DNA of 64,000 nt from Naegleria gruberi (taxonomy: Eukaryota), in NCBI GenBank assembly GCA_000004985.1, contig GG738929.1; one strand, given 5' to 3'. The stretch's first letter is position 1, and every line of letters starts with the position of its first letter. The notes under the pieces were generated by a model. The model was not told the DNA's origin. It saw only the letters and a list, made by a program, of their open reading frames with translations, and did no database searches. Both the position numbers and the translations under genes were made by a program. Positions 4,345 through 60,460 of this stretch are shown in pieces.

Positions 4345-4417
4345 ACTCCCCCTGGTGGGCTCGAACCACCGACCTGCAGATTAACAGTCTGACGCTCTAC
4401 CGACTGAGCTAAGGGGG
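4345..4417 (-). tRNA. tRNA-Asn (anticodon GUU)
   Basis: The 73-nt cloverleaf has a 7-bp acceptor stem (TCCCCCT/AGGGGGA) and a D-arm GCTC/GAGC. The anticodon loop CTGTTAA carries U33 and A37. The T-arm is GGTGG-TTCGAGC-CCACC. There is no intron. Confidence 0.85.
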
Positions 4418-4532
4418 ATTACATGTACTAAGAATGGTTTCCACTAATATACAGACAAACGTCACTTTAATCAAATTTGTTAAATTTATTGTGGGAACAT
4501 TTACTGAACTCTGATTACAAAATTGAAAAAAA

Positions 4533-11000: not shown

Positions 11001-14000
11001 AACAGTAACTCTCTTAATTTCGTTATATTGGAGAGATTCGCTGTGCTTCTTCAAAAGGTTAGTAAGGGATGGGAGAAGTTCAACATCATTTGGTGTTGGT
11101 CCGTGAGCTCTCAACAAAATCTTCAAAACATTAGTATTGTCAGCATCGTCGTTATTTTCAAAGATCTTCATAACATCTGGAAGGTGAGCATCAATATCAC
11201 TGACAGAATCAAAGATAGCCAAAACACCAAAACCAATGTTATCTTCAGTCTCTGAGAGACTGCTCAAACAGTCCATAGAAATAGAACCAACAATACCATC
11301 AGACTTTAATGAACCTGAAGTGGACTTTTCAGTATTCATAAAACTAAATTCAACAGTCTTGAACTTTGGTTGGGAGGTAACTCTTGAAATATCAATATCA
11401 AAAGTACAGTATGCCTTTCTGATGTAGACTTCAGCAGCCAAGTTAGCAATTCTTTCATCTGGATCAGAGAAGAATTCAAGAAGAATGTCGAAACTATAGT
11501 TAGACTTGACAATTAATTCCTTCAAACAAGCAAGCTTTTGTTGATTATCAACAGCTTCAAGTCCATCCTTAAAGTATCCTTCCATTTCATCCTTCATTCT
11601 TTGCTTAGAAGGCAATCTACTTGAGGTGAGGATGTGTTTAGCAGCAACAGCAACATCACTGAATTCTGGAGCAACAAATGAAGCCAATTCATCCAAAAGT
11701 GGAGTTGATTCCTTAACCATGTCGAGTTCTTCAATAATTTCTAAAAGAGAACGAATAACCTTATTCTTACTGCTAAGTCTAAAGTGGGAGAGACCAATTT
11801 GGTAAGTCTTGTTGAGGTTTTCAGAGTGTTTTTGTCTCAATTCAAACCAAACAGCTTCTCTTCTCTTACCACCAGTGGTATCAAAGATCTTTTCAGTTTG
11901 AATATATTCTTCAAGTAATTTGGCGAGAGTGGAGAAAGCATGTTGCTTGTATCCATTATTGAAGAGTTCCAAAAGTTCAAAAACTGGTTTGGCAGCGATG
12001 AGGAATTCTTCCTTCTTAGCTCCTTCAAGACCACTTTCAAAGTTCTTGAAAATAGAAGTAATTTCCTTAACTAAATCCTCATTGTAAACATCTTGGGTGT
12101 GATCATTATCATCCTTGCAACAATATTCGTCGTATTCAATCTTTCTCTTTTGCAAAAGGTTATTGACTTCTCTAACCAATGATACTGGTAAGAATTTTCT
12201 CAAAACTGAAAGCTTTTCAATCATTTCATGGATAATAACATTTCTATCACCGAGTTTTCTGAGTGACAACATGGTTTCTGAGAGTTTGTCATTGAAAATG
12301 AAAGCAGGATAATCATAACCAGCCAACAAGTTTTGAACAGTTTCCAAAGCAGAAGAAACAACTCTATTTGGAGGAAGTCTTGCATTAACCTTAGCAGCAG
12401 GAGGGAATTGGCCTTCGAATGGAAGTGATCTCTTAACTTGGGATTTATCATCAAGATCGATTATAGCAATGATATCTCCTTGGTTAACACCAGTACCATC
12501 AACAAGACAGTGATTAACTCTACCTGGAAGTGGAGCATAAACAGTGACAATCATCTTCATGACTTCCAATTCAGCAACTGGAGTATTTGGTTTAACATGA
12601 GCACCATTTTCAACCAAATACTTCATGAATTTACCACTCAATGTTGATCTCAATTGAGATGGATCGAATTCCTTAGTAAACATACAAACCTTACCGTCAA
12701 GTGTAAGTTTGAGGCCCGAAGGTTCTTCACTGGCATAAGAGACGTGTGATCCATTGTCAACAACAATGAGTAATCCAGAATCTCTCAATTCAGACAATTC
12801 AGCTTCTATTGTAGATCCATTCAAAGCCAAAGTATATTTGTTTGGTCCACTTCTAACTCCGTCAACTTGATATTTAATATTTTCATAAATAAGTTCAATA
12901 GAGTAGTGTACATCAACATTGTCAAATGAAGGAACCTGTCCTCTTTCAACAGCCAAAATCCAATTCTTGGCTCTCTCGGAAACCATTCTGTGGAGAGTAT
13001 GGACTGCACCACAAGTAACTACTAAAAGTGTATCAGGCTTTTCCAATTTAATTTTCTTTGAAATAAGATTATCCAACCATGATGTTGTATAATTGTTATT
13101 AACATAATCATCAAACTTCAAAAGTGATTGTAAATATTCAGCTGTTGTTCTGATTTCGCCTCTGATGGCTAATTCAGAAAGTGTTGAAAGCATAGTCTTT
13201 CTTGCTTCTTCTCTTGTTTCACCCTTTGTGAAAATGTGACCGAATTGAGAATCAGAGAAAGCGTGGATGGCACCTTGGGAACGAATTGAGAAATATCCCC
13301 AAACGTTTGGATTTGTTCTAAAGTTAAGTTCAACAACAGAACCACAAGTTGGTTGGAACCCACTTTCTGGATTTTCAGCTGTAACACGGCAAGCAATAAC
13401 GTGACCAACTGGAGGTTGTCTCCTAGCAGCATCGTTAACATCAATTTGTGGTTCAACAGTGTAGAGATCCTTCAATTGAACACCAAAGAATCTTCTAATA
13501 TCTGGAATACGATTTAATGATATTCCCATAGCAATTTGAAGTTGGATAGATGGAATATTGGTGAGTGTAATCCATTCTGTGACTGGATGTTCAACTTGCA
13601 ATCTAGGATTCAATTCCAAAAAGTAAACATGTTCAGTAGCAGGTTCATAAAGATATTCAACTGTACCAGCACCACTATAATTAACACTACGAGCAAGTGT
13701 GACAGCTGCAGCTTCCATTTTATCAATAACGTGCTTTGGAGCAACTGTAACTGGACCTTCTTCAATAATCTTTTGATGTCTTCTTTGAACGGAACAATCT
13801 CTTGAATATAATGCGAGAGCATTACCATGTTTATCAGCAACAACTTGAACTTCCAAGTGTCTACTTTCACTAGAGAGTTTCATCAAGAAAATAGGAGATC
13901 CCGGCACTTCATTTTTAACTTGTGAAAATCCCAATTTCAATTCAATATCATTTGCTACTTTACGAATACCTTTACCACCACCACCTTCAGAAGCTTTAAT

Positions 14001-24946: not shown

Positions 24947-26413
<1,467 letters not shown>

Positions 26414-26535: not shown

Positions 26536-28948
26536 CTAGTTTACAATCGACACTGCACTCTTTTCCTTATATAATGATACTGCAAAGTACCATTCAACTT
26601 TGAGATCTATTGAATCATCAAAACATGTACCCAAATCTGTACTAATGTCATCCATTATAACCTTAACAGATAAACATCTCTTATCAAAATTAAAATTAAC
26701 AATAACAGTGGCCTTTTCTTTGAGTAATTTGTTTTTCGTAAACTTTTTCCATGAATCCATGTAACCAGCTTGCCCAGAAACAAAGTTAATACCATAGGAA
26801 TTTTGAAGTTTCTTTGATCCTAATATTCCTCCTTTTTTACAAATTCTCCAATCATTATCTTTTGACACTAAACCAATGACAATTTCATTTTCTGCACTGA
26901 GTTTCTCAATCTTGAATGCAACTTCATTATTGAGTGGTGTTACCTTTTGTTCACATCTGGCAGTATAGTAATCTGATCCAAAAACCTTATTCTGTAAAAG
27001 AGTTAAGGTCTTTTGATGATTAGAAAGGTTGAAATAGTTGTGTTTACAACCAGTCTCAAATATAAAGCTTTGCTTTTGTTGCTTAAATACCATCTGATAA
27101 TATTCATCAACGTTGACATTTTCTTTTGGATCATGTGAAGGTTTAGCTTGCCCTTTAACCTCAGTAACCATCTTGTTTTTGAACATGCCAACCATTAAAT
27201 TACTTTTTGAAGGTACCTTTTTCAATGACTTATCATCAACTAATTGAATTCCATTGTTATATTTCACGCTCTTTCTTCTTGCTTTAACAGTTTGAGATCT
27301 TGCTTGCTGAGTTGAGGCACTACTCTTTCTTGGACTCGAATCATTCAAATTTGGTGAAACAACAATTCCCTGTTCATGATGTTTCAGAATGAGAGGACCA
27401 AGTAAATCATTAATATTTTGCTTAACCTTTTCGCTAAATTCAACTTGTTGATTCAATTGATCAATTTGAGATTGCTTAACTTTCATCTCTGCAAAATATT
27501 TAAATTTTCTAAATCTCATCAACCATGGAGAGTATTTAATCTCTGAAATACTTTTAGGTCTTTTAGTTTTATCATTCGTCAGAACACTCATTATTAAATC
27601 AACAATGTGTCTATCACTACAATTTTCTTCAAGAATTGACCAAGTTTTTTCTTCATCAATTGCATCAATTTTCAAAAATGTGCTGTCTTTAACAATTAAT
27701 TTAAATAATAAATGACCTAAATTCCAAATATTTTCTTGTTTTTCCTTTTCCAAATCTGCATTTAAATCTGTTTGTAAAAATGTTTCCAAATTAAGATAAA
27801 TGCCAATTTGCTTCTTTACATCACCTGATAAATTGTCTCTAATGAAAATATCATTCTCAAGTAATTGTTTAACTAAATTATTATTGTTAAATGTCCTATT
27901 TCTACTATGAAACATCATAATCACATCAAGAACTTGTGTGAAAATATGAATTGCACTATCAGTACTCATATTTCCAAAAGTTGATTTCAATAAATCACTT
28001 AATTTAATTTCAGATGGAATATATTCCATAGTATAGAACAATCCAGTAAATTTAGGTTCAAATTCTTCACTATTTTGATCAATGACAAGATATAAATCAT
28101 AAACTTGAGCAACATTGACATGATATGAAAGTGATAATAATTCAATGAACTGTTTTTTTGAAATAATCAGAAAATTGAATGAATCCAAATTGATTAAACT
28201 CTAAATTAACAAAATGAAAACAATGAAAACAAACCTTTCTTTTCAATTCCAATTCATTTCCCAATATTGATGATTTAAAATTATCATCAATAAAGTGAAT
28301 ATATCTTCCAACACAATATTCAATATTATCTTCATCTTCTGTACTTTCATCTTCTTGATATTCATCTTCTAAAACTTCAATATCTGATAAAATTGAATCA
28401 TTTCCAGGTGGAGTATTAGCAGATCCAGCCAAATTACCTTTCATTCTATGTTGTAGTTGAACTAATTCTTCAAAATCAGAGAAGGAAGTACTTGTACTCA
28501 TATTTTGAGTAGATTCTGAACTTGGTGATTGACATGAATGATGATTGAGTGGTGTTGTATTATTTGAAGCAGTTAAATGTTGTGGAGTTTGTGGAGATGA
28601 TGATAAATTTGTGTGTAATTGTTTTACAATTGGTAAATTTAATGTTAAATAATCTTCACTTGTTTGTAGAGTATATTCGTAAAGTGAAAATTGTGAATTT
28701 GATGATTGATTTTTTCTATAGTGAATAGTAAATGATTTGTATGGAGAAAATCTGTGCTGATGAGAATTTAAATTTCCATGAATTGATGATGACAATGATT
28801 GATGACTGGCAGCAATCATCAATGTATTGAAATGATAAGATTCATGATGAGAAGTTTTTGATGATGATGCTTGTTGTTCAACAACAGCTTCTTGATTGGA
28901 TGAAGTAAAATAGGCGTAATTTAACTTGTAGTGAGAGGGGTCTGTCAT
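26536..28948 (-). CDS. Pseudokinase-like domain fused to a C-terminal SPRY/B30.2-like domain. Exon 1 is 28233..28948. Exon 2 is either 26536..28198 (after a 34-nt intron) or 26536..28149 (after an 85-nt intron).
   Basis: The kinase C-lobe remnants are YTMEYIP, IWNLGHLLFKLIV and RPKSISEIKYSPWL, with no HRD or DFG catalytic motifs. The SPRY-like tail reads GINFVSGQAGY...VKVEWYFAVSLY. The two track ORFs sit in different frames and are joined by an AAG|GTTTGT donor. Confidence 0.55.
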
Positions 28949-43641: not shown

Positions 43642-46600
43642 TTATTGAGCTTCAACTTGACCGCCTAAACATTTAATCAAATAATCAATCATTGAGAAAC
43701 TACTCATTTCTTCTACTAGAAGATTTGAATTCAATTCCTTCAATCGATTTGTTGCTTGTTTCAAATGAATAACAGATTCAGAATATTTGCTTGAATCTTT
43801 CTTTCCGCTTTGGAGTGTTTCTTTTGCCCATTGAGAAAGAGGATACATTCCATCATCACTCTTATCATTCTCAGTAACATTAGAAAGGAAATTGTCAAAT
43901 GATGTTTCTTCTACTTTACCATAGAGATTAGGATAATTTGTCTTTAAGTGATTTAGTAACTCTTCGTGAGTTGGTGGATTAGTATTGCAAATGTGAATAA
44001 TTTCCAAATCAAATAATTTGAATCGAGTGGAATTGACAATGATTTTGCTTACAAAGTCAACATTCACCAAGTTTCTAACAATTTCTAAATTTGGAGTACT
44101 GTTAGTTCTCTTAATTGATTTTAACATTCTTTCCAATAGAAAACCTTTTGGCATTTCACCTGTTTCATTTCCAATAATTAAACCAGGTCTCACAATCAAT
44201 ATTGGTAATCCCAAAATGTCTTTGGCTTGTTTCAACAAACACTCGGATGCAAATTTCGTTTGAGGATATCCGAATGTGAGATTCATTTCTGATAGTGTTG
44301 AAATCCTCTCTATTGGTTGACCTGAATCCTTATCCAAAGGTGCAGCAGATATTGAACTAACATATAGCAATGGCTTGACCCTACTCTGAAATGAAAACTC
44401 AATCATTCGTCTTGTTCCATCAACATTCGATTCTTTCAAAGATGAAAATGGTTGAATAAAATTCACAACAGAACCACCATGATAGACAACATCAACATTC
44501 CGAGCCAATTCATCATAGGTTGCTCTGTCCATTCCAAATAAATCCAAGCCAACATCTCCAACAAGTACTTGAACTCTGCTAATATATTCATTCTTCCAAA
44601 GTGAATACTTTTTCATGTTATCTATTAATCTCTTAGTTGCATGATCAATACTATTACCTCTACAAATACAATAGACCATTTTCAATTCTTGTAATTCTAA
44701 TAAATCTCTTAATAGGAAGGCACCCAGAAATCCAGTAGATCCAGTTAAGAGAACTTGTTCATGAATGAGTGGTTGACTGGAAGAAATACTTTGTGGAAGG
44801 GATTCCTTTGATTTTTCCAAATATTTCATTATTTCTTCATTGACAACAGGTGTTAATAATTCAGATTGATTGATTGCCTCAATGAGTTTCTTTGGAGTGT
44901 TCATCTTGTATACTTCATCAACACTCAGTTGAACATTGAATTCATTCTTGATATAATTTCTTAATTTGATCAATGAAATTGAATCTAATCCAATATTAGT
45001 AAGTGATGTATTCAGTTCAATTGCATTTTCCTCGTTTATAAATATTTGCTTATTCATAAATTCGAGAAATTGTGAAGGTTCTGCAATTTTAGAAGCTTTC
45101 TTACTTGATTGAGGTTTCTTTACCATAATATTTTCATTCTCATTAGCAGAGGATGAAACATTGTAAAGTGAATCAATAATATTCTTGAATACTTGTTCAG
45201 TTTTAGATCTAGAAACAAGTCCTTTCAAACTACTGGTTGGAATACTATCATTGGTTAGCAATATAAAATCCACAATTCTAGAATGGAATGGAAGTCTATT
45301 ATTCATTTCAATAATTTGCTCACTAATCTTTTCCTTAATATTATTAGGTTTCTTTTTAGGATCAATTTCAATCAATGCCACACAGAAAGGTCTATTATGA
45401 CCAATGACAGCACTTCTAACAACGGATCCATCAAATGAATCAATTTCATTCTCAATTGGTACTGGATTAGTCATTTCACCATTAGTATGACAAAGAATAT
45501 TATCAGATCGGGTATTATAGAAATAGTGATCTTTAGGATACTCAAAAAATAAATCATGAGTACAGAATATACCATCTACCCAAAACTTTGTATTATTAAT
45601 GGACATGTAATCCAATGCACATGTTGGGCAACCCTTCTTTAGATTCAATAAATAACACTTTTCCATTTCATAAGGTTGCCAAACAATGTACTTTTCTGGA
45701 ATGACACATTTCATTGATTTGAATGCGCCAGTGAACGGATCAGCTGCCATTACAACACCTACCTCACTCATTCCATATCCATTTGTTATGTTAATTCTAT
45801 GATCTTGGCAATAATTGATGAGATGATTTGGAGTAGAAACTCCACCAAGAGCCACAACCAGACATTCAGATAATAGTTTAGTCTTTTCCTCTGATTCCAT
45901 TATTTCTTCCAATAAAATTGGAAATACAATGGCTCTAGTGGATGGTAAATGTTCCTTATGGCTCAACAATACCTGACTGAGTGTTTGAGAAATACTTTGT
46001 CTAGTTGTCTGATTAAACATTATATAATTAGTACCCTTGTAGAGACAACCCAACAAGTTATATAATCCCATTAAGTGAAATAATGGTAGAAAGTTGATAA
46101 CATATTGTTGACTTGTCGTTCCAATGGATTGTGAATAGTGAAGACTTGACATTAGTGATCTCATATTGTGAATTACTATTTTAGGAATATTAGTACTACC
46201 TGAAGTGTTCAAATAAAAGCATGGATCTTCAAATTTGAATGGTAATTTCAGTGCTTGTTTCAAATCTTCATCACTGATTGTAGTATCTAATTGATCTTTG
46301 ATAGCTGAAATAATGTCGAATGGTTTCAGATAGGAAGAATATTCATGTTTCTCATAATCTTTCAATTGTTGTGAAATGTCTGATGTGATCATGTATTTAT
46401 CGGCTGTTTTAAAGAATGTATCCATACTCTCCTTATCACTTGCTTTAATCATTGAATCTAGAATCTGGGGAGATAAACTAACATATTTCACATTTCCCAA
46501 TTCGAGTAGTTTTGAAATAATTCCAGGAGTCAATTTGTTATTGACTGGAAAATTAATACAACCCAAAGTCCATAATGCAAACAGTAATACAGAGTAGACT

Positions 46601-48332: not shown

Positions 48333-50081
48333 ATGTTTTTTGATAATGATACTCTATTTGTCATTTTCCATTACATGACTCCGTGGAATTTATTATTTAC
48401 AACCAGTAGAGTTTCTAAACAATGGAAATATGTTTCCTCACTCATTCCGATCCATTTAAAATTTAATCAATTTAATACTTTTCATCAAATCATGATGATG
48501 AAATTTATTACTACTCATCATCTAATTGATGATCATCAGATGAATGAAAATAATTCTTTTAAAATTGTGGAATTAAATTTAATGAACATGTATATTAAAA
48601 AGGAAAATATTCATTTATTATATGAACACATTAATGTATTGAAATGTTCATTAACGAGTTTGAGTTTACCAAGACTTTTACCGAGAGATGTTTTGGAGAA
48701 AATTTCAGAAATTGAAATGGAACACTTGACACAATTAATGATTGATGGATGTGAAATGAATTTAGATTGTACATTATTTTGTAAATTTAAATTAAAACAA
48801 TTGAGATTAACAGAGATTATAACAGTGGAAGCATTTTCTGCTCTTGCAAAAAATGAAAATTTGTACAATTTAACAAGTTTAGACTTGTCTATTTCTCAAT
48901 CTACCGTTGAAAGCATTGAAATATTGAGTAATAGTTTAATATTTAGTAATTTAACATGTTTAATTATGGAGCATAATCATATAGATGATGAAATGGTTAA
49001 AATTCTAACAAAATGTAAATATTTATCAAAAATAAGGAAATTGAATTTATTTGCAAATGATATTGGAAATGTTGGACTACTCCACATATCATCTTGTGAA
49101 TATTTGAGGCAATTAAATCATTTAGATTTGAGGAGAAATTCATTTACTGATATTGGAATCGGCTATTTGAGTAATAGTTCAAATATGCAAAATTTAGAAT
49201 ATTTGGATTTGAGTAGAAATGTATTGAGTGGTGATAGTGCTATATTATTATCAAATAGTCAATATTTAACAAATATTAAATCAATTAATCTAACTTCTAA
49301 TAGTTTAGGATATTCATGCGTTAAGGAAATTTCTAAATTTAAACAATTGGAAGAATTGAAATTATGTAATAATGATCTCAACCAAGAATCCATGGAAATT
49401 ATTTCCAAATCCTTCACAAAATTGAAAGTTTTAGATTTGAGTGATAATCCAATTATGGAAGGTGCTTCGCATCTTCAAAATTTACCAAATTCCAATTTAA
49501 TTCATTTAGATCTATCGCTTTGTAAACTTCCAATCAAATGTATTGTTGATTTATCAATGAGTGATTCTATATTGAATGTAAAGAAGCTATATTTGGGATT
49601 TAATCAAATTGGAGATGAAGGTGTCATGTTAATTTCGTCTAGTCTTTACAATCTCACTCATTTGTTTCTTCCATTTTCGAATATTACATCAAGAGGTGTA
49701 AAATATTTATGTGATGGAGTGTTGGATAGAATTGAATTGTTGGATTTGGCAAATAACATGATAGGAAATGAAGGATTGACCTACATTTCACAATGTAATA
49801 ATTTTTCCTATTTGGAATATCTATATTTGGATATTAATATTTTAATAAGTGATTTGAGTGAATTATTGTTTGTGAATGGAAATTTACAAAATTTAAAACA
49901 TATTTCAGCTAGAAAATGTATGATTGTTAAATTAATTGAGAAATCTGATGAAAATATTTCTTTGCCATTATTGGAATTTCTCGATATTTCAAAGAATAAG
50001 TTTGAGAAGAGTGAACTTTCTAAATTAATGAAGAAAACTTCAATTCTGCCTTGTACTCTTTCTCTAGTCATTTTGTATTAA
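48333..50081 (+). CDS. F-box / RNI-like leucine-rich-repeat protein
   Basis: An N-terminal F-box-like motif (LFVIFHYMTPWNLLFTTSRVSKQWKYV) is followed by about 20 LRRs of the L..LDL..N.I type. The ATG is at 48333. Confidence 0.7.
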   Translation: MFFDNDTLFVIFHYMTPWNLLFTTSRVSKQWKYVSSLIPIHLKFNQFNTFHQIMMMKFITTHHLIDDHQMNENNSFKIVELNLMNMYIKKENIHLLYEHINVLKCSLTSLSLPRLLPRDVLEKISEIEMEHLTQLMIDGCEMNLDCTLFCKFKLKQLRLTEIITVEAFSALAKNENLYNLTSLDLSISQSTVESIEILSNSLIFSNLTCLIMEHNHIDDEMVKILTKCKYLSKIRKLNLFANDIGNVGLLHISSCEYLRQLNHLDLRRNSFTDIGIGYLSNSSNMQNLEYLDLSRNVLSGDSAILLSNSQYLTNIKSINLTSNSLGYSCVKEISKFKQLEELKLCNNDLNQESMEIISKSFTKLKVLDLSDNPIMEGASHLQNLPNSNLIHLDLSLCKLPIKCIVDLSMSDSILNVKKLYLGFNQIGDEGVMLISSSLYNLTHLFLPFSNITSRGVKYLCDGVLDRIELLDLANNMIGNEGLTYISQCNNFSYLEYLYLDINILISDLSELLFVNGNLQNLKHISARKCMIVKLIEKSDENISLPLLEFLDISKNKFEKSELSKLMKKTSILPCTLSLVILY

Positions 50082-54212: not shown

Positions 54213-54414
54213 TTTTTTTTTATTGTTTATTTCCAGATAACACACAACATTCTCGACATTCTTTGATGTTCCAATTTCAATTTGATTGTAAACAAGAGTA
54301 AAAAAATTGAAGATGAGTTGAAAATCTATTTGTGTTAATATAGATTGAAGTAAATAATGGTGATTTAAAAAACACTAATATTAGAATGAATATTAAAAAA
54401 CCAATTCAAAGAAA

Positions 54415-56388
54415 ATGTACTCACTGCACCAACACACTACTCAAGATGAATGTAATGATCATTCACATTCTGATACCTTCTTCGATGATAATAGTACTAT
54501 TGAGTCATTGCTCAATGATGATTTGTTTTCACACCTTGCTGGCAATACTCAAGCACCATCAGAGAGTGGAGTTTCTAATTCTTGTCATGATTTTGAAGAT
54601 GATAACGATGATAATGAACGAGTTGACAATGAAGAAGAAAGTATGCCACCTTGTAAACACCTAACACCAGATGCAAAGAAGGAGAAGGAGGAATTTGTTG
54701 CTAGAAAATTAACAGAAGAGGAAATTCCAATGGAAAGAACAATATTTTGCAGTAATTGTACTTCATGCACTTCATGTGTCTGTCAGAAGAATAAGCTTCC
54801 CTGTACAGTTAAATGTGCATGTCAAATTAAATGTAAAAATTTGAGAAAAGAAGTACTAACTGATAATTGGATTCAACACAAAACCTTACCAGAAAGAAAT
54901 ATTGAAAGTCCACTAATAGTTGGTCCAATTAATGTGAAACAAGATTTATCCATAAAGGAATCATTTCAATTGATTTGGACACCTGATATTATAGAACACA
55001 TTTATGAGAGAACCAATAGAAAGTTTGAATATTGGCAAATTTACTCAGATGAGATTAAAATGTATAAACTTGCAATTAAAGACAAATCCAAAAAGAGAAA
55101 GAGAATGAACAATAACACTAATCCATCTGAATCCATTGAATTATGTTCAGATATCGAATATGATCAGCCAGTTAGAACTCCAAAAAAGATATTTCCTGAT
55201 TTTGATGAATATTTCACAAAATGTAAAACTGAAAACAAAATATTAGAAGAAAAGTTTTCAAGAAAGCAAATTACTAACTTTTTAAATATTTCTATATTGA
55301 TGAATACTACATGTAAAATTCCAAACATTTGCAATTATTGGACAATATCAGGACTTGATGCAGCCCTTTATGGAAATGGAATATTCAGATATTTAATGAG
55401 TAGATCAATGTTTAATCAAATCAAGCAGAATTTAACATGTGACTCTGATTTTTTGGAAATGAGAGTGAATGAGAATTCTAGAAAATTTTGGAAATGTTTC
55501 AAAGAAATTTCAGTGGATGAAATAATTGCTCCTTTCAAGGGAAAGATTAGTGACAAACAGTTTCTCCCCACCAAACCTCACAATTATGGATTGAAATATT
55601 ATACACTATCTGATTGGGTTGGGTATGTTTATGCATTTTGGTTGTCAAAACACGAACATAAATCAGATAAAATTGTTTTAGATCTTATTGAGCATATTGA
55701 TGATCCACAGAATCATATTTTAGGTGTCGACAATTATTATGGATCATTAAATTTAGCAAATCAATTATCAGAAAAAGAATGGAATTATGTCATGACAGTG
55801 AGGGCTAATAGACCAACATTTCTTTTCAGTGATGGATTGTTGAAACATCTCAAAAGAAGCAAAACTAAAAAGTGGACTCAAGCTGTCCATAAAAACAATC
55901 ACATGGCTGCTGTTTCTCTCAATGATCACAAAAAGGTTAATTTTTTAACTAATTTGGGAAGTAATCAAACATTTCATTCACAACCACTTGTTCAGAAATA
56001 TGAAAGAATGGGTTGTGTTGAATTGTCTGGAATCAATCTTTACAAAATGGATGTTCCCTTCGAGGTAAATAATTGGAAAATCATCCATCTCTTTGAAGTT
56101 CTACGTATAGCTCTCGTTAATCAATATTTAATTTATAAGCATGTTAGAAACTTAACTAATTTGACCCTCAATGAATATTTGCAAGAGGCAACATTATCTC
56201 ATTGTGAATCCACCAACCCAAATTTCAAAAGAACAATACATTTCCCATCCAGTGTCAAAACTCGTGGACTTTGTGAGCATTGTAAGAATTTTCATTCTCT
56301 CACTCCTATCAAATGTCCTGCTTGTAATTCCTACCTTCATCAAAAGTGTTTTGTAGATTTTCACCTTAAAAAACACATTTATTATTAA
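54415..56388 (+). CDS. piggyBac-transposase-derived protein (DDE_Tnp_1_7-like core, C-terminal Cys-rich zinc finger, extra N-terminal CxxC-rich region). It could be domesticated or the ORF of an element.
   Basis: The core blocks are WTPDIIEHIYERTN, IAPFKGKISDKQFLPTKPHNYGLKYY and GVDNYYGSLNLANQLSEKEWNYVMTVRANRPTF, matching the DNFFTS...GT.R.NR block. The C-terminus CEHCKNFHSLTPIKCPACNSYLHQKCF is a piggyBac-type CRD. The 657-aa ORF is intact. I did not verify TIRs or TTAA target sites. Confidence 0.7.
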   Translation: MYSLHQHTTQDECNDHSHSDTFFDDNSTIESLLNDDLFSHLAGNTQAPSESGVSNSCHDFEDDNDDNERVDNEEESMPPCKHLTPDAKKEKEEFVARKLTEEEIPMERTIFCSNCTSCTSCVCQKNKLPCTVKCACQIKCKNLRKEVLTDNWIQHKTLPERNIESPLIVGPINVKQDLSIKESFQLIWTPDIIEHIYERTNRKFEYWQIYSDEIKMYKLAIKDKSKKRKRMNNNTNPSESIELCSDIEYDQPVRTPKKIFPDFDEYFTKCKTENKILEEKFSRKQITNFLNISILMNTTCKIPNICNYWTISGLDAALYGNGIFRYLMSRSMFNQIKQNLTCDSDFLEMRVNENSRKFWKCFKEISVDEIIAPFKGKISDKQFLPTKPHNYGLKYYTLSDWVGYVYAFWLSKHEHKSDKIVLDLIEHIDDPQNHILGVDNYYGSLNLANQLSEKEWNYVMTVRANRPTFLFSDGLLKHLKRSKTKKWTQAVHKNNHMAAVSLNDHKKVNFLTNLGSNQTFHSQPLVQKYERMGCVELSGINLYKMDVPFEVNNWKIIHLFEVLRIALVNQYLIYKHVRNLTNLTLNEYLQEATLSHCESTNPNFKRTIHFPSSVKTRGLCEHCKNFHSLTPIKCPACNSYLHQKCFVDFHLKKHIYY

Positions 56389-56601
56389 ACAATTAAATCA
56401 AAGATATTTAGATTTCAATAAAGTATTGAATCTTAATACTTTTTGCCATCAAAACCTTCAGTTTAAGCGACTAGAAAATAGGGGGAACCTTTGCCAATTT
56501 TTCAATACCAAACAAAGGGATAAAAACAGTTTAATAAGTATTAAGTTATTTAATAAAATACTTTTAAGCAATCAAGATCTTGTTTTCAATCTATGACTAA
56601 G

Positions 56602-56606
56602 AAAAA
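56602..56606 (-). terminator. Pol III oligo-T terminator of the 5S gene
   Basis: A TTTTT run lies directly 3' of the 5S end on the minus strand. Confidence 0.5.
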
Positions 56607-56724
56607 GACTACAGCACCACAGGTTCCCAAGTTGTCTCCAACCTCAGTACTGATGTGGCTCGACGATGCTTAACTTCTCAAATCGGACGGGATGAGGTGC
56701 ATGAATCGTGATATGGCCGTAGCC
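56607..56724 (-). rRNA. 5S ribosomal RNA, dispersed copy
   Basis: The minus-strand sequence GGCTACGGCCATATCACGATTCATGCACCTCATCCCGTCCGATTTGAGAAGTTAAGCATCGTCGAGCCACATCAGTACTGAGGTTGGAGACAACTTGGGAACCTGTGGTGCTGTAGTC (118 nt) matches the 5S consensus. Helix I pairs, and a T5 run follows as a Pol III terminator. Confidence 0.85.
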
Positions 56725-56780
56725 ATTTCCTATCATTAAATCTTAATTTTGAATAAGAATATTACTGATTTTTAAATCTA

Positions 56781-57266
56781 ATGTTTTCGTCTATGAATTC
56801 TATCTATTCTAACAATATTCTTTTCAATTTACAATTAAGACGGGAAGCCTGCCAGGAATATGGCGACAATCCCGCTACAGTCTTTGACTGTATGAACAGT
56901 GAAGGCAACGATCTTGCGATAGTTGGTTTGTTCAATTTGGTTGAGGAAATTAAGAAGATAACTGGCCTACTATTTATTTGTTGGCAATTAGCAAAGTTCT
57001 TCTTAAATTTTGGTTTGATTCTTTCACAAGATCAAATTTTGAATGCTATTGGTAAACCAGTCTTATCATTTGTTGTTGCAGATTTCGAAGATTCTGATAT
57101 GGAAGAAGTTTATCCAAACGAACCAGTTTCTTTGAAGGAAGGAGAAATTTTCAAATTGTATGGTAAAATCAAAAACTCTGGAAAGGAAACAGCTAAGGTT
57201 GCTGTATCTTTCAGATATGGTTCAAAGATTTATCACATTCAAGAACTTGATATTCCAACAAGTTAA
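56781..57266 (+). CDS. Hypothetical 161-aa ORF with a GC-rich 5' part whose codon usage is atypical for this genome
   Basis: An ATG sits at 56781. The segment 56838-56930 is GC3-rich (cgg gcc tgc cag ggc gac ccc), unlike neighbouring genes. The C-terminal half looks beta-rich. No domain recognised. Confidence 0.3.
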   Translation: MFSSMNSIYSNNILFNLQLRREACQEYGDNPATVFDCMNSEGNDLAIVGLFNLVEEIKKITGLLFICWQLAKFFLNFGLILSQDQILNAIGKPVLSFVVADFEDSDMEEVYPNEPVSLKEGEIFKLYGKIKNSGKETAKVAVSFRYGSKIYHIQELDIPTS

Positions 57267-58527
57267 CCGAGTTGATACAAATAAACGGTGAGACGGGCAA
57301 CGGGATGAACGGGATTCAGGCCGTTTCTTATTCTAAACGGGAGATTCTCTCCGCTTAATACTACAAGCTGGCAATTCAAATATGGAGAGAGAGCTTAGTA
57401 ACATTAATAAAATGAATGAGACATAATTACTTTTTGAATTTTCCTTTTATATTTGAAACTTTGACTCTGCTTACTTTCAATTGTTTGTTTAATATGGCTT
57501 GCTTGACTGAAGAATAAGCAATAACTAACACATCCAAACATCACCAAATTGGTCTGACTGGATTTTGAAGAAAAAATATTTCAACATCTAGTACGTGATG
57601 TACTTTGATGATTTACGGAGTGGTTTCACATCTTTATACCACAATAATTTCAGCCCTTCATCTATACATCATCTATATAATAGTAGTAATAATGATTTTT
57701 ATTGGAAAATTATCATCATGAAATTAGAAATCATTTTTCATCATGGAAAAATTGATGTTGGTGATACCATCATCTGATCATTCACCAACCATCATCAATG
57801 ATATTTTCCATCGATATAATAATAGTATTTAGTTATGATAGGGAAAGGTATGTGTGAAATTTGAAAATACACATGTATACTACCCATCATGTACTTCACC
57901 AAATCAAAAAGTTTCTTCTAGTAGTACTATTTAAATTGATAATAAACATCATATTTATTATAATTTATTCCTGTTCTTTTGTGTTGGTCAGGTTCCTGTT
58001 TGGTTGACTAAGAATTGGTTATTTACTCGCCCAAATTAAATTTCCAAATCGTGCAGCTTTCCCATGTATTAGTAAATATCAAATTAATAATAAATTTCAC
58101 TTTTTTTTTAATTTTTTATATAAGGCATTCCTTAACACTCTTTTTTTCCCTTAATTCTGAATAACTCTTGGATCAGATGACGAAACTTGAATTTTTTGAA
58201 TAATTATGGATATATATAAATAATGACAATGCTACTAACTGTAATTGGCATGTTTTATTCTTTGCGAATAAACTTGAAACAAATCTATTCAAAGATTTGC
58301 TAATTTGTTAGTTGAAATTACAAAATAAAACAACGAAACTTGAAATGATAACATACATGAATGCACACATCGAGTGGGGAAAGTTTCATGAAATAATAAT
58401 GTGAAATTTGATCTTGGGAATGAAATCGCTAAGAACAAGTAGATTAAATCCAACAACAAATGGAATCAATTAGAACAATTTTAGAATGTTACTGTGTTAT
58501 TGAGCTTAATATCCATTCTTAATTCCG

Positions 58528-58622
58528 TTTCTTACTTCAGACTGCCCCGTTGGACAGTTTCTTACTTGAGGCGGATTCCGTGAGACTGTGTGTTCCGTCA
58601 CTCCGTTTCTTAGTATTCACTC
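58528..58622 (+). promoter_or_regulatory. Triplicated GTTTCTTAC/GT-containing motif just upstream of the ATG at 58635
   Basis: TTCCGTTTCTTACTTCAG, GACAGTTTCTTACTTGAG and CTCCGTTTCTTAGTATTCACTCAG lie within about 95 nt. The patch is locally GC-richer than its surroundings. Confidence 0.25.
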
Positions 58623-58634
58623 AGTGTCCTAACA

Positions 58635-59144
58635 ATGTTCCTGAAGAGGCTGCCATGCCAACTTTGTGGGCTCAACAAAAGATTGACTCTCTCTCTGCAT
58701 TCCCTCAACTGTGCACAAGAAGCTAAAGATAAGCAAGAAAAGGAAAAGTTAGAAAGAATTATTAGTATGTGGAAGGAAAGAGTTAATTGGCATAAGACTG
58801 ACTTTAAATTACCTGAAGAAAAGCCAGAAAAGGAAAAGAAAAAGTTGGCTGCAATGGATGACTGTATTTCTGAATCTCTCTCTGTACAATCCTCTAGTTT
58901 GGATCGTTGTTGTAGATGTGAGGAGAATAGAGAATGTTGCAGACGTTCTTGTGCACCATCTCCAAGTTGTGCTAGAGGTTGTTGTTGTCGTTCTGCTAGT
59001 CCTTCTTTGAGTTGTTCAGATATCAGTTCAGGTCCACCACCACCTTCTGGAGGTGCAGGTAGTCCACCACCTCCTTCTGCTAAGTCAACAGCCTCTCAAG
59101 AAGAACCTAGTGTTGCTGGTACCATTCCATCTGGTAATTCATAA
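58635..59144 (+). CDS. Dubious Cys/Pro-rich ORF that overlaps the 3' end of the actin-like fragment on the opposite strand
   Basis: An ATG sits at 58635. The 169 aa carry a CCRCEENRECCRRSC block and PPPPSGGAGSPPPPS. They are low-complexity and partly antisense to the actin-like ORF. Confidence 0.2.
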   Translation: MFLKRLPCQLCGLNKRLTLSLHSLNCAQEAKDKQEKEKLERIISMWKERVNWHKTDFKLPEEKPEKEKKKLAAMDDCISESLSVQSSSLDRCCRCEENRECCRRSCAPSPSCARGCCCRSASPSLSCSDISSGPPPPSGGAGSPPPPSAKSTASQEEPSVAGTIPSGNS

Positions 59145-59785
59145 GAAACATCAGTCAGTGCCTTTTCATTTTCCTGTTCAAAATCCAATGCAACATAGCA
59201 AATATTATGCTTAATATCTGTCATGACATCTGTTGGATGCTCTGCAAAATATGGTATTTTACATCCAACAAATGCTTGAACCAAATATTCAGTAATTTCC
59301 CTTCCAGCAAAATTCCAACTTGAAATGGCATGTGTCAAGGCATATCCTTCATAGACAGGAACAGCTCTTGATACCATCTCTCCCAAATCCAAAACAATTC
59401 CACTTGTCTTGCCAGATGCAAACAATGCCAACACTCCTTGCATTGCCACATAAAAATTTGATATATTAAACTCCTCAAACACGATCTGCGTCATCCTCTC
59501 TCTATTACACTTTGGTTCCCTCACTGCTTCACTCATCAAGATTGGATGTAATTCTGGCCTGCATCTCAATTCTTCATAAATGGTTTGTCTCCAAACTAGT
59601 TCCATATCAGATATGTTGGTAATGACACAATGTTCAATTGGATATTTCAATGTACAGATACCTCTCTTAGCAATGGCTTCATCACCAACTACAGTGGTGC
59701 TTGTTGATTTCTTGTGATGGCCAACTATGGTTGGAAAGATTGATGTCGGAGTATTGTCTTGTTCATTTGCTATTCCTACTTTCAT
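59096..59785 (-). pseudogene. Divergent, truncated actin-like gene fragment, equivalent to about actin residues 20–250. It is a probable pseudogene or a decayed actin-related gene.
   Basis: FPTIVG...VGDEAIAKRGICTLKYPIEHCVITN...MTQIVFEEFNISNFYVAMQGVLALFASGKTSGIVLDLGEMVSRAVPVYEGYAL...ICYVALDFEQE...YELPDG follows actin colinearly. It lacks the N-terminal DNGSG phosphate-1 loop, the phosphate-2 DSGDGVTH motif is degenerate (DLGEMVSR), and the frame ends 9 codons after PDG, with the actin-like continuation in the +1 frame. Confidence 0.6.
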
Positions 59786-60460
59786 ATTACAAGATCAGTA
59801 AATAAATATCTCAGTTTAGTTTCTGAATAAAAAGTTGAAACCCAGTGTCAGGACTTGAACCTGAATTATGTGATTTGGACTTGTTGTTTAAGTATCGTCA
59901 GATTCACATGTCTTTCATTAGACTACACAGGGTTGAGTGGAATTGTTTTTTGGGTTTGATGTGTTGGCTGTGTTCAAGGATTATGAATCAGATTTTTGGT
60001 TTCAATGAATTAACATTTTCCAAATTTACCTTTCAAAGTTTGTTAAAAATCGGATTTTTGTGGCTTAATAATATCAGAGTTGTTTCTTAAGGAATGAAGA
60101 AATGTTGTTTACCCCCGATTATTTCGTAATTTTCTGACAACCATACGCCCCTAAATGAAAAGATAGATTTCTGCACCTCCTTCACCACCTCAAACTATAA
60201 TTCATGTCTCTTCCCCATCGTTTTCGGTTGTTTTAAAAAAAAGACAAAAAATAACTTGAAACCTCACTCCTTACCATTATTAAGCATTTTTCATCATTAT
60301 CACACCATCAAAAATGTTGAACACCCACTAGTAATGTTCTTCTACATGGTTTTATGTAGAAACCATCTAAAATTCATCTTCACTAGCCCAAAAAATTCAT
60401 TTCCTCTGTTGAAGAATATTTTCTGGTTTCTTTTTTTCTGTTCGGATTACAATTAAAAAA

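Follow-up and report, generated by a model that had tools for sequence, protein, structure and literature searches.

We analysed a stretch of 64,000 nucleotides (nt) of contig GG738929.1 of Naegleria gruberi (assembly GCA_000004985.1), hereafter the window, and in particular its positions 56560-57420. An earlier note had described this interval as a GC-rich island holding a dispersed 5S ribosomal RNA (rRNA) gene and an open reading frame (ORF) with foreign-looking codon usage, and had suggested that the flanks could hold another non-coding RNA (ncRNA) transcribed by RNA polymerase III (Pol III) or a fragment of foreign or repeat origin. We found that the supposed island is a patchwork of four unrelated things, each more GC-rich than the AT-rich spacer around it: a solitary 5S gene, a piece of a decayed native gene of the VIT/YfaP_C family, one terminus of an insertion with inverted repeats at its ends, and a short cluster of hairpins. 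The earlier observation is partly confirmed, and the interpretation given to it is partly supported. The features of the locus, numbered from the first letter of the window, are as follows.

56606-56724, minus strand: 5S rRNA gene, complete (Rfam RF00001)
56725-56749, minus strand: putative promoter-proximal upstream element of the 5S gene, AT-rich and TATA-like, shared with the metagenome locus L007
56781-57266, plus strand: ORF of 161 codons, only the 3' part of which has homologues
56838-56930, no strand: upstream GC-rich segment, 93 nt, G+C 0.495, with three adjacent hairpins
56967-57257, plus strand: fragment A of the VIT/YfaP_C gene, matching Naegleria fowleri residues ~447-543 and Naegleria lovaniensis residues 457-552
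57266-58625, no strand: insertion with terminal inverted repeats (TIRs), containing no ORF longer than 60 amino acids (aa)
57266-57296, plus strand: left TIR, with TTAA at 57263-57266 and followed by a cluster of the motif AACGG
58595-58625, minus strand: right TIR, with a cluster of AACGG on the opposite strand
58634-58711, plus strand: fragment B, matching N. lovaniensis residues 557-582 (69% identity by tblastn) and positions 493-518 of the family hidden Markov model (HMM)
58716-58805 and onward to ~58997, plus strand: fragment C, matching N. lovaniensis residues 638 to ~700

G+C content of the interval

The mean G+C content of the window is 0.329, with a standard deviation of 0.057 among 100-nt windows, and that of the whole interval 56560-57420 is 0.359. 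The sharp departure from the rest of the window that had been claimed for the interval was overstated: a G+C content of at least 0.44 over 100 nt is reached in 23 separate regions of the window. Its longest GC-rich stretch lies elsewhere, at 25051-25980 (1-kb G+C 0.43), within a 451-codon ORF at 25058-26413. In an AT-rich genome such as this one, a local peak of G+C can mark an RNA gene as well as a transposon terminus or a gene relic, and such peaks do not call for reading the interval as a single island.

A solitary and self-contained 5S rRNA gene

The match to RF00001 scored 100.3 bits against a gathering score of 38 (E=1e-20) and covers model positions 1-120. Both the minus-strand gene and its oligo-T run, as first described, are real; the length given for the gene, 118 nt, is not, since it spans 119 nt. 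The 3' end of the RNA reads GTAGTC and is followed by TTTTT (56606-56602, minus strand) and then C, the last base of the gene being the first T of this run. With five residues, where at least four were looked for, the run would serve as the Pol III terminator of the gene, and this copy is presumably transcribed by that polymerase.

A survey of the N. gruberi genome catalogued 279 putative 5S genes (PMC3369914, Table S1), which lie on nearly all scaffolds and are unlinked to the ribosomal DNA (rDNA), and it reported an internal control region and a TATA box for them. With 279 dispersed copies, it is normal in this genome for a 5S gene to stand alone, and the gene in the window was correctly called dispersed, as one of the ~279 catalogued copies.

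For comparison we used metagenome contigs found by a 24-nt Naegleria-type 5S motif, 14 in number, each of which (14/14) carries one 5S gene. The 5S gene of the closest of them, L007, is 97.5% identical to the window copy, and blastn aligned window positions 56603-56749 with L007 536-683 at 92.6% identity over 148 nt; the similarity ends there, taking in the gene, the first part of the T run and ~25 nt upstream and nothing more. When the flanks of the other metagenome 5S loci were compared side by side with those of the window locus, no similarity was seen outside the gene, the T run excepted. Since similarity is confined to 56603-56749, the transcription unit of the 5S gene is complete in itself, and the GC-rich flanks are not carried along with it; across the 13 other loci, similarity stops ~25 nt upstream and at the terminator, contrary to the earlier idea that such flanks might accompany 5S copies. 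Compared with L007 and 12 other relatives, the window copy has one broken pair in helix II and UCAU in place of GAAA in loop B; with these three substitutions in helix II and loop B its score is 100.3 bits, against 106.3 bits in the closest relative.

A permissive Rfam scan of 56350-57650 (E<=10) returned the 5S gene and three chance-level matches, all of the latter outside both GC-rich segments. With no other family at this threshold and no run of at least four T after either segment, the proposal of another Pol III ncRNA in the flanks was not supported. Within the sequences covered here, the findings agree with what the earlier note said would refute it, namely no Rfam match besides 5S and flanks made of single-copy sequence. 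We also considered GCTACAGTCTTT (56874-56885) as a relative of the 5S 3' end, which it matches at 10 of 12 bases but on the wrong strand, and judged this to be chance.

An ORF joining a gene fragment to an apparently unrelated 5' extension

Within the 161-codon ORF, the last 124 codons, from the ATG at 56892 (56892-57266), are identical (100% match) to an NCBI "predicted protein" of N. gruberi. No Pfam family was found in the ORF, and its AlphaFold model is uninformative, with a mean predicted local distance difference test score (pLDDT) of 41. A word-indexed protein search returned only the ORF's own annotation, and the reading as an orphan ORF that this suggested was overturned by an exhaustive HMMER scan: phmmer against 1.84 billion representative proteins gave 13 relatives, the best (E=1.4e-24) aligning ORF residues 66-160 with residues 450-544 of a 1033-aa protein. 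The relatives carry a Pfam VIT domain near the N-terminus and DUF2135/YfaP_C at the C-terminus. Those with a species name, annotated as hypothetical or VIT-domain proteins, come from N. fowleri, N. lovaniensis, Willaertia magna and Acrasis kona, and the remainder are unnamed metagenome or Logan proteins. BLASTP of the ORF against a relative gave 60% identity over 80 aa; for the N. fowleri and N. lovaniensis proteins the identity is 54-60% over ~80-97 residues and up to 67% locally.

We mapped the remains of the gene by tblastn of the family against the whole window and confirmed them with the family HMM, which gave 103 bits for fragment A over 57018-57263. Fragments A, B and C are colinear, B lies in a different frame from A, and C is frameshifted relative to B. 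The gap between B and C is 4 nt in the window, and 55 conserved codons have been deleted there, including those of the most conserved block of the family, IVTxNTSLIVLETLDQYLKH; the conserved motif HIATKSGG at the start of the retained slice has degenerated to FICWQLAK. By tblastn and HMM, neither the first ~446 nor the last ~330 residues of the family match anywhere in the 64 kb, and no match to the VIT or YfaP_C domain was found in the window, so that ~250 of the ~1050 family residues are represented at the locus. A search with an N. lovaniensis member (P0025) found a pair of paralogues in each of N. fowleri, N. lovaniensis and Willaertia and no N. gruberi protein. Because its named homologues are heterolobosean and because it has lost both ends, suffered an internal deletion and become frameshifted, the locus is a decayed relic of a native gene and not foreign DNA.

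The codon usage agrees with this. On a codon table built from 23 long ORFs of the window, with a training mean of 0.33 bits per codon, the ORF part at 56931-57263 scored +47.9 bits over 111 codons (0.43 per codon) and is typical of N. gruberi, contrary to the foreign look first ascribed to it, while the 31 codons of 56838-56930 scored +0.7 bits and the 19 codons before them -1.8 bits, that is, about zero. The start of the ORF had been described as strongly biased towards G and C at third codon positions (GC3). It is GC-rich, but its GC3 is only 0.47-0.53 and positions 1 and 2 are equally raised (0.43-0.57); since G+C is raised at all three codon positions, 56838-56930 is a compositional feature and not a codon-usage bias. 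To judge from homology and coding score, the ORF appears to be a gene fragment with an unrelated 5' extension.

These results bear on two other readings of the ORF. One takes the GC-rich segments or the ORF as DNA acquired from a bacterium or a giant virus, for which the local rise in G+C is the sole point in favour. Every named homologue of the ORF belongs to Naegleria, Willaertia or Acrasis, the part with homologues has native codon usage, the downstream segment is paired with an inverted terminus in the same locus, and viral contigs contain no exact match to either segment, so that we regard a foreign origin as extremely improbable. The other reading takes the annotated 124-aa (or the whole 161-aa) ORF as a functional chimeric gene of recent origin, in which new 5' sequence, with the GC-rich segment as 5' untranslated region or N-terminus, became fused to a retained portion of the VIT gene. 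No stop interrupts the frame over the ~66-83 codons before the homologous part, which we estimate to happen by chance with a frequency of ~0.004-0.012; fragment A has neither stop nor frameshift, has kept the identity given above and has good codon usage; and an NCBI gene model exists. The retained 80-97 aa are, however, an internal slice of a 1000-aa multidomain protein and contain no recognised domain, the HIATKSGG motif is degenerate, the first 50 codons score about zero for coding, AlphaFold gives no confident fold, and a perfect hairpin abuts the annotated ATG. We consider a functional chimeric gene unlikely, and the gene fragment is probably non-functional.

A putative transposon inserted in the gene relic

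The counterparts of 57021-57257 and 58634-58711 lie 12 nt apart in N. lovaniensis (L017, at 7656 and 7669) and 27 nt apart in L018, a Logan contig from another heterolobosean, whereas in the window the same coding pieces are 1376 nt apart. The window therefore carries an insertion, the empty site here being that of other species and not an allelic one. The inverted repeats end no more than 8 nt from the breakpoints of homology on both sides, and 24 of the 31 positions of 57266-57296 match the reverse complement of 58595-58625. A gapped inverted alignment of the terminal 160 nt scored 41, compared with 19.3 +/- 3.0 (maximum 32.5) for shuffled sequences; among pairs of real GC-matched window segments, 4 of 1455 reach this score. 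The motif AACGG occurs at 24 sites in the window, five of them in the left terminus (57284-57340, four on the plus strand) and three, all on the minus strand, in the right one (58525-58607). The two termini are thereby the two densest AACGG clusters of the window, the left being the densest, and they are in mirror orientation. Their G+C contents are 0.44 and 0.42, while that of the interior is 0.28.

The GC-rich segment downstream of the ORF (57265-57400, G+C 0.44) is the left terminus of this insertion, and the earlier suggestion that a flank is of repeat origin holds for it. The perfect 6-bp hairpin noted in this segment, CCGTTT-8 nt-AAACGG, exists as well, although it lies at 57321-57340, ~10 nt before the place first given, and consists of two opposed copies of the subterminal motif. 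We rejected it as a signal in itself: perfect 6-bp hairpins with loops of 3-10 nt number 287 in the window, and the 19 with at least three GC pairs compare with 17-27 in shuffled sequences. The folding of 57262-57400 is likewise no better than that of shuffles (z -0.8 and -1.2), and no run of at least four T follows the segment.

The insertion shows no remnant of a transposase and has no second copy in the 64-kb window. We considered whether it is a deletion derivative of the transposase-bearing element that lies nearby, described below, and found no protein or DNA similarity between them. From its termini and the empty site, 57266-58625 would be a non-autonomous DNA transposon with terminal inverted repeats inserted into the VIT/YfaP_C gene, and it was presumably mobile.

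The interval between fragments A and B, 1.37 kb in length, might also be an unusually long spliceosomal intron of a functional gene, for it lies between colinear coding pieces and a GT is present near AAG/TTAAC after the last homologous codons. The relatives, however, lack an intron here; there is an in-frame TAA, B does not continue the frame of A, and none of the intervals that we tried restores it. In addition, inverted termini of 31 nt with mirrored clusters of a motif bound the interval, and the remainder of the gene is absent or has been deleted. An intron is thus highly improbable, and we retain the transposon as the preferred reading.

The upstream GC-rich segment

The 93-nt segment at 56838-56930 lies 114-206 nt upstream of the 5S gene, between the upstream region of that gene and the point at which the gene relic breaks off on its 5' side. 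It forms three adjacent, purely Watson-Crick hairpins, one of which, the perfect ACAGTC-TTT-GACTGT, abuts the ATG at 56892. For 56830-56935 the folding z score is -4.57 on the minus strand and -3.13 on the plus strand. Among the 1206 windows of 106 nt that were scanned, the segment ranks second by z and first by absolute energy. Other windows with z of -4 or below are at 44968-45073 (minus strand), 49420-49525 (plus), 46028-46133 (minus), 28220-28325 (plus) and 12532-12637 (plus), and these are AT-rich or inside long ORFs.

We compared the segment with a wide range of sequences. Neither blastn nor a covariance model found a relative of it in 116 kb of Naegleria and other heterolobosean loci, a single-sequence covariance model run over 180 kb matched only the segment itself, and no match was present elsewhere in the 64-kb window, nor any exact match in viral contigs. 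Several candidate origins were tried and rejected. A weak tblastn match around WDCSxS (E ~0.8-0.9) would have made it a diverged piece of the VIT gene; a 20-sequence HMM of the VIT family gave no match in the first 66 translated residues of the ORF even at E<=1000. When aligned with the ends of the 1.36-kb insertion, the segment scored no better than the null, and translations in three reading frames against all PDB sequences, which might have revealed the relic of a conserved protein, returned nothing. Upstream of 11 other Naegleria-type 5S genes there was neither similarity in sequence nor, near the corresponding position, any comparable structure. L013 does have a perfect 20-bp hairpin (folding z ~-9) at 1378-1483, 225-330 nt upstream of its metagenome 5S gene; that contig is from a more distant organism, and the hairpin is unrelated in sequence to the window.

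The segment could be an independent structured ncRNA gene or RNA element, possibly linked in function to the neighbouring 5S gene. GC-rich, strongly folding stretches are the classical signature of RNA genes in an AT-rich genome, the folding scores above (z -4.6 and -3.1) are among the most extreme of the 1206 windows, and the G+C content exceeds that of all 425 coding chunks of 93 nt in the window (0/425 are as GC-rich); nor is the segment coding-like. Against this, no Rfam family was found at E<=10 and no run of at least four T follows the segment on either strand, nor on the minus strand does one occur ahead of the 5S gene; either strand can form every stem with Watson-Crick pairs, so that neither is favoured; no homologue was found in the loci searched; and the 11 other 5S genes have neither a comparable element nor similarity upstream, the hairpin of L013 being a different one and further away. 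We therefore think an RNA gene of this kind very unlikely. Including the wider case of a palindromic site for protein binding or recombination, the chance that the segment is an undescribed functional element, whether this or a small structured RNA gene, is still slim. It could instead be a solo transposon terminus, debris of a rearrangement, or the 5' leader of a chimeric ORF.

The neighbouring piggyBac-like element and other surroundings

Two further features lie on the other side of the 5S gene.

54415-56388, plus strand: intact ORF of 657 aa for a piggyBac-like transposase (Pfam DDE_Tnp_1_7, E=1.6e-33)
56481-56523, plus strand: probable right end of the piggyBac-like element, with the motif GGGGGAACCTTTGCCAATTTTT and then AAAGGG/ATAA (56514-56523)

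The transposase best matches proteins of N. lovaniensis (P0002, 45% identity) and N. fowleri (39%). The ORF appears to be unannotated, since no N. gruberi protein is among its database matches. In N. lovaniensis we found a complete piggyBac-like transposon (L001 9751-12507, PYSW02000039.1), which begins with TTAA followed by CCTTTACGCCTAACGAAAAAT and ends with ATTTTTCGATAGGCGGAAGGG followed by TTAA, having 21-nt TIRs that start with CCYTT and TTAA on both sides. The motif GGGGGAACCTTTGCCAATTTTT is also present in this element, 21 nt inside its right TIR (L001 12462-12507), and GGGGGAAC occurs once in the window. Because this shared subterminal motif places the right end of the N. gruberi element at ~56519, the 5S gene would be ~85 nt outside it. 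We found no left end for the element in the window, and no TIR of the N. lovaniensis type there with up to three mismatches. The transposase genes of N. lovaniensis and N. fowleri are in unrelated genomic contexts, consistent with mobility.

One may ask whether the 5S gene is cargo of a piggyBac-like transposon reaching from the TTAA at 54365 to the TTAA at 56772, which could account for the dispersal of 5S genes. The two arms of a 21-nt inverted repeat (54362-54382 and 56758-56778) agree at 19 of 21 bases, both contain TTAA, and they closely bracket the transposase ORF together with the 5S gene, an arrangement whose chance within the restricted search space we estimate at ~1e-4 to 2e-2. In Naegleria the transposase family is mobile, the N. 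lovaniensis element has both TTAA and TIR, and the contexts differ between species. The arms are nevertheless AT-rich and of low complexity and do not start with CCY as the N. lovaniensis TIR does, blastn of the repeat against the window gave E=0.064, and by the subterminal motif the element would end at ~56519, 85 nt before the 5S gene is reached. There is overlap between the right arm and the upstream region of the 5S gene, and other 5S loci have no transposase. A 5S gene conserved beside the transposase was also sought in the other species and rejected: the N. lovaniensis and N. fowleri elements and their loci contain no 5S gene, Rfam matches or flanking synteny. The cargo explanation is accordingly most improbable, and the 21-nt repeat is probably due to chance; we keep to a 5S gene that stands outside the element.

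On the downstream side, an ORF of 169 codons (58635-59144, plus strand) runs over fragment C, has a Cys/Pro/Ser-rich tail, which explains a GC-rich patch at 58891-59160, and overlaps the end of an actin-like ORF on the opposite strand. The latter (59096-59785, minus strand) covers actin residues 18-247 only and has lost the DSGDG motif, and is a truncated relic abutting the VIT relic; it is 49% identical to human beta-actin. Beyond it, Rfam places a tRNA-like gene at 59840-59932 (minus strand, tRNA family, 43.2 bits), whose anticodon arm contains an insert of 27 nt, presumably an intron. This gene went undetected by ARAGORN, which reported a tRNA-Asn at 4346-4418 alone. Between 54.4 and 59.9 kb, mobile elements, relics of genes and Pol III genes thus lie together in one patch.

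Interpretation and significance

We propose that the interval was assembled from four parts. The first would be a self-contained solitary 5S gene with internal control sequences, a TATA-like element ~25 nt upstream and a T5 terminator. The second would be an internal fragment of a native heterolobosean VIT/YfaP_C gene, supplying the well-behaved two-thirds of the ORF; this gene would have lost its first ~446, its last ~330 and 55 internal codons and acquired a frameshift. The third may be a 1.36-kb non-autonomous transposon with subterminal AACGG motifs that inserted into the same gene, and the fourth a 93-nt GC-rich cluster of three short palindromes, situated at what is probably the 5' breakpoint of the gene fragment. 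That such a four-part patchwork in the nuclear DNA of N. gruberi describes the locus is, in our judgement, highly probable.

Several observations weigh against this proposal. The evidence for mobility of the insertion consists of its inverted termini and of an empty site in other species, with no second copy in the window. Its left junction has TTAA but its right junction TGTC, so that no clear target-site duplication is seen, and an imperfect duplication of ~10 nt (CCAACAAGTT and CCTAACAATGTT) is an alternative candidate for it. Fragment A and the ORF over fragment C have no internal stops, so that the pieces may be expressed or the decay may be recent. The lack of a full-length homologue in N. 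gruberi is a statement about its annotation, which seemingly omits the 657-aa transposase ORF. Finally, the segment at 56838-56930 is not accounted for by the proposal, and its structure score is an outlier.

The finding is an ordinary one and has little import beyond annotation. The 124-aa "predicted protein" of NCBI is better described as a fragment of a decayed gene of the VIT/YfaP_C family. A family of which N. fowleri, N. lovaniensis and Willaertia each retain two copies may have been lost from N. gruberi, and this loss, if it is true genome-wide, would be a small point for the comparison of pathogenic and non-pathogenic Naegleria. An intact piggyBac-like transposase and a candidate new non-autonomous element with AACGG motifs would be useful additions to a Naegleria repeat library.

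Comparison with known systems

Repeats combining spliced-leader (SL) RNA and 5S genes occur in Euglenozoa, nematodes and dinoflagellates. The locus resembles them in having a GC-rich structured segment of ~100 nt within ~115-205 nt of a 5S gene, in a relative of Euglenozoa. It differs from them in that the segment has no RNA family, no terminator, no consistent layout of Sm site and splice donor, and no recurrence at 5S loci. Trans-splicing is not known in Naegleria, and a linkage of the SL RNA-5S type, which we had taken as a lead, was not supported.

The insertion resembles transposons with TIRs of the type of miniature inverted-repeat transposable elements in its imperfect 31-nt termini starting with CC/CT, TTAA at one junction, mirrored subterminal AACGG motifs, AT-rich non-coding interior and an empty site in relatives. 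The nearest candidates for its superfamily are those that target TTAA, such as piggyBac, of which 29 copies are reported in N. lovaniensis (PMC6125883); as no clear target duplication is seen, we did not assign one. Its termini are unlike those of the N. lovaniensis piggyBac-like element and unlike the putative end of the neighbouring N. gruberi one.

With the heterolobosean VIT/YfaP_C proteins, represented by FDP41_013521 and FDP41_007132 of N. fowleri and by C9374_008094 and C9374_013346 of N. lovaniensis, the relic in the window shares 54-60% identity and colinear matches that resume 1.4 kb downstream. It differs from them in having neither of the two domains and in carrying the frameshift, the 55-codon deletion and the 1.36-kb insertion.

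The 18S-28S rDNA of Naegleria is extrachromosomal, and solitary 5S genes of similar organisation are found in Schizosaccharomyces pombe and Neurospora. The closest parallel is with the other dispersed 5S genes of N. gruberi itself: the copy in the window is, like them, a single complete gene with a TATA-like element, a putative internal control region, a T run and unrelated flanks, and it does not differ from them in any essential way.

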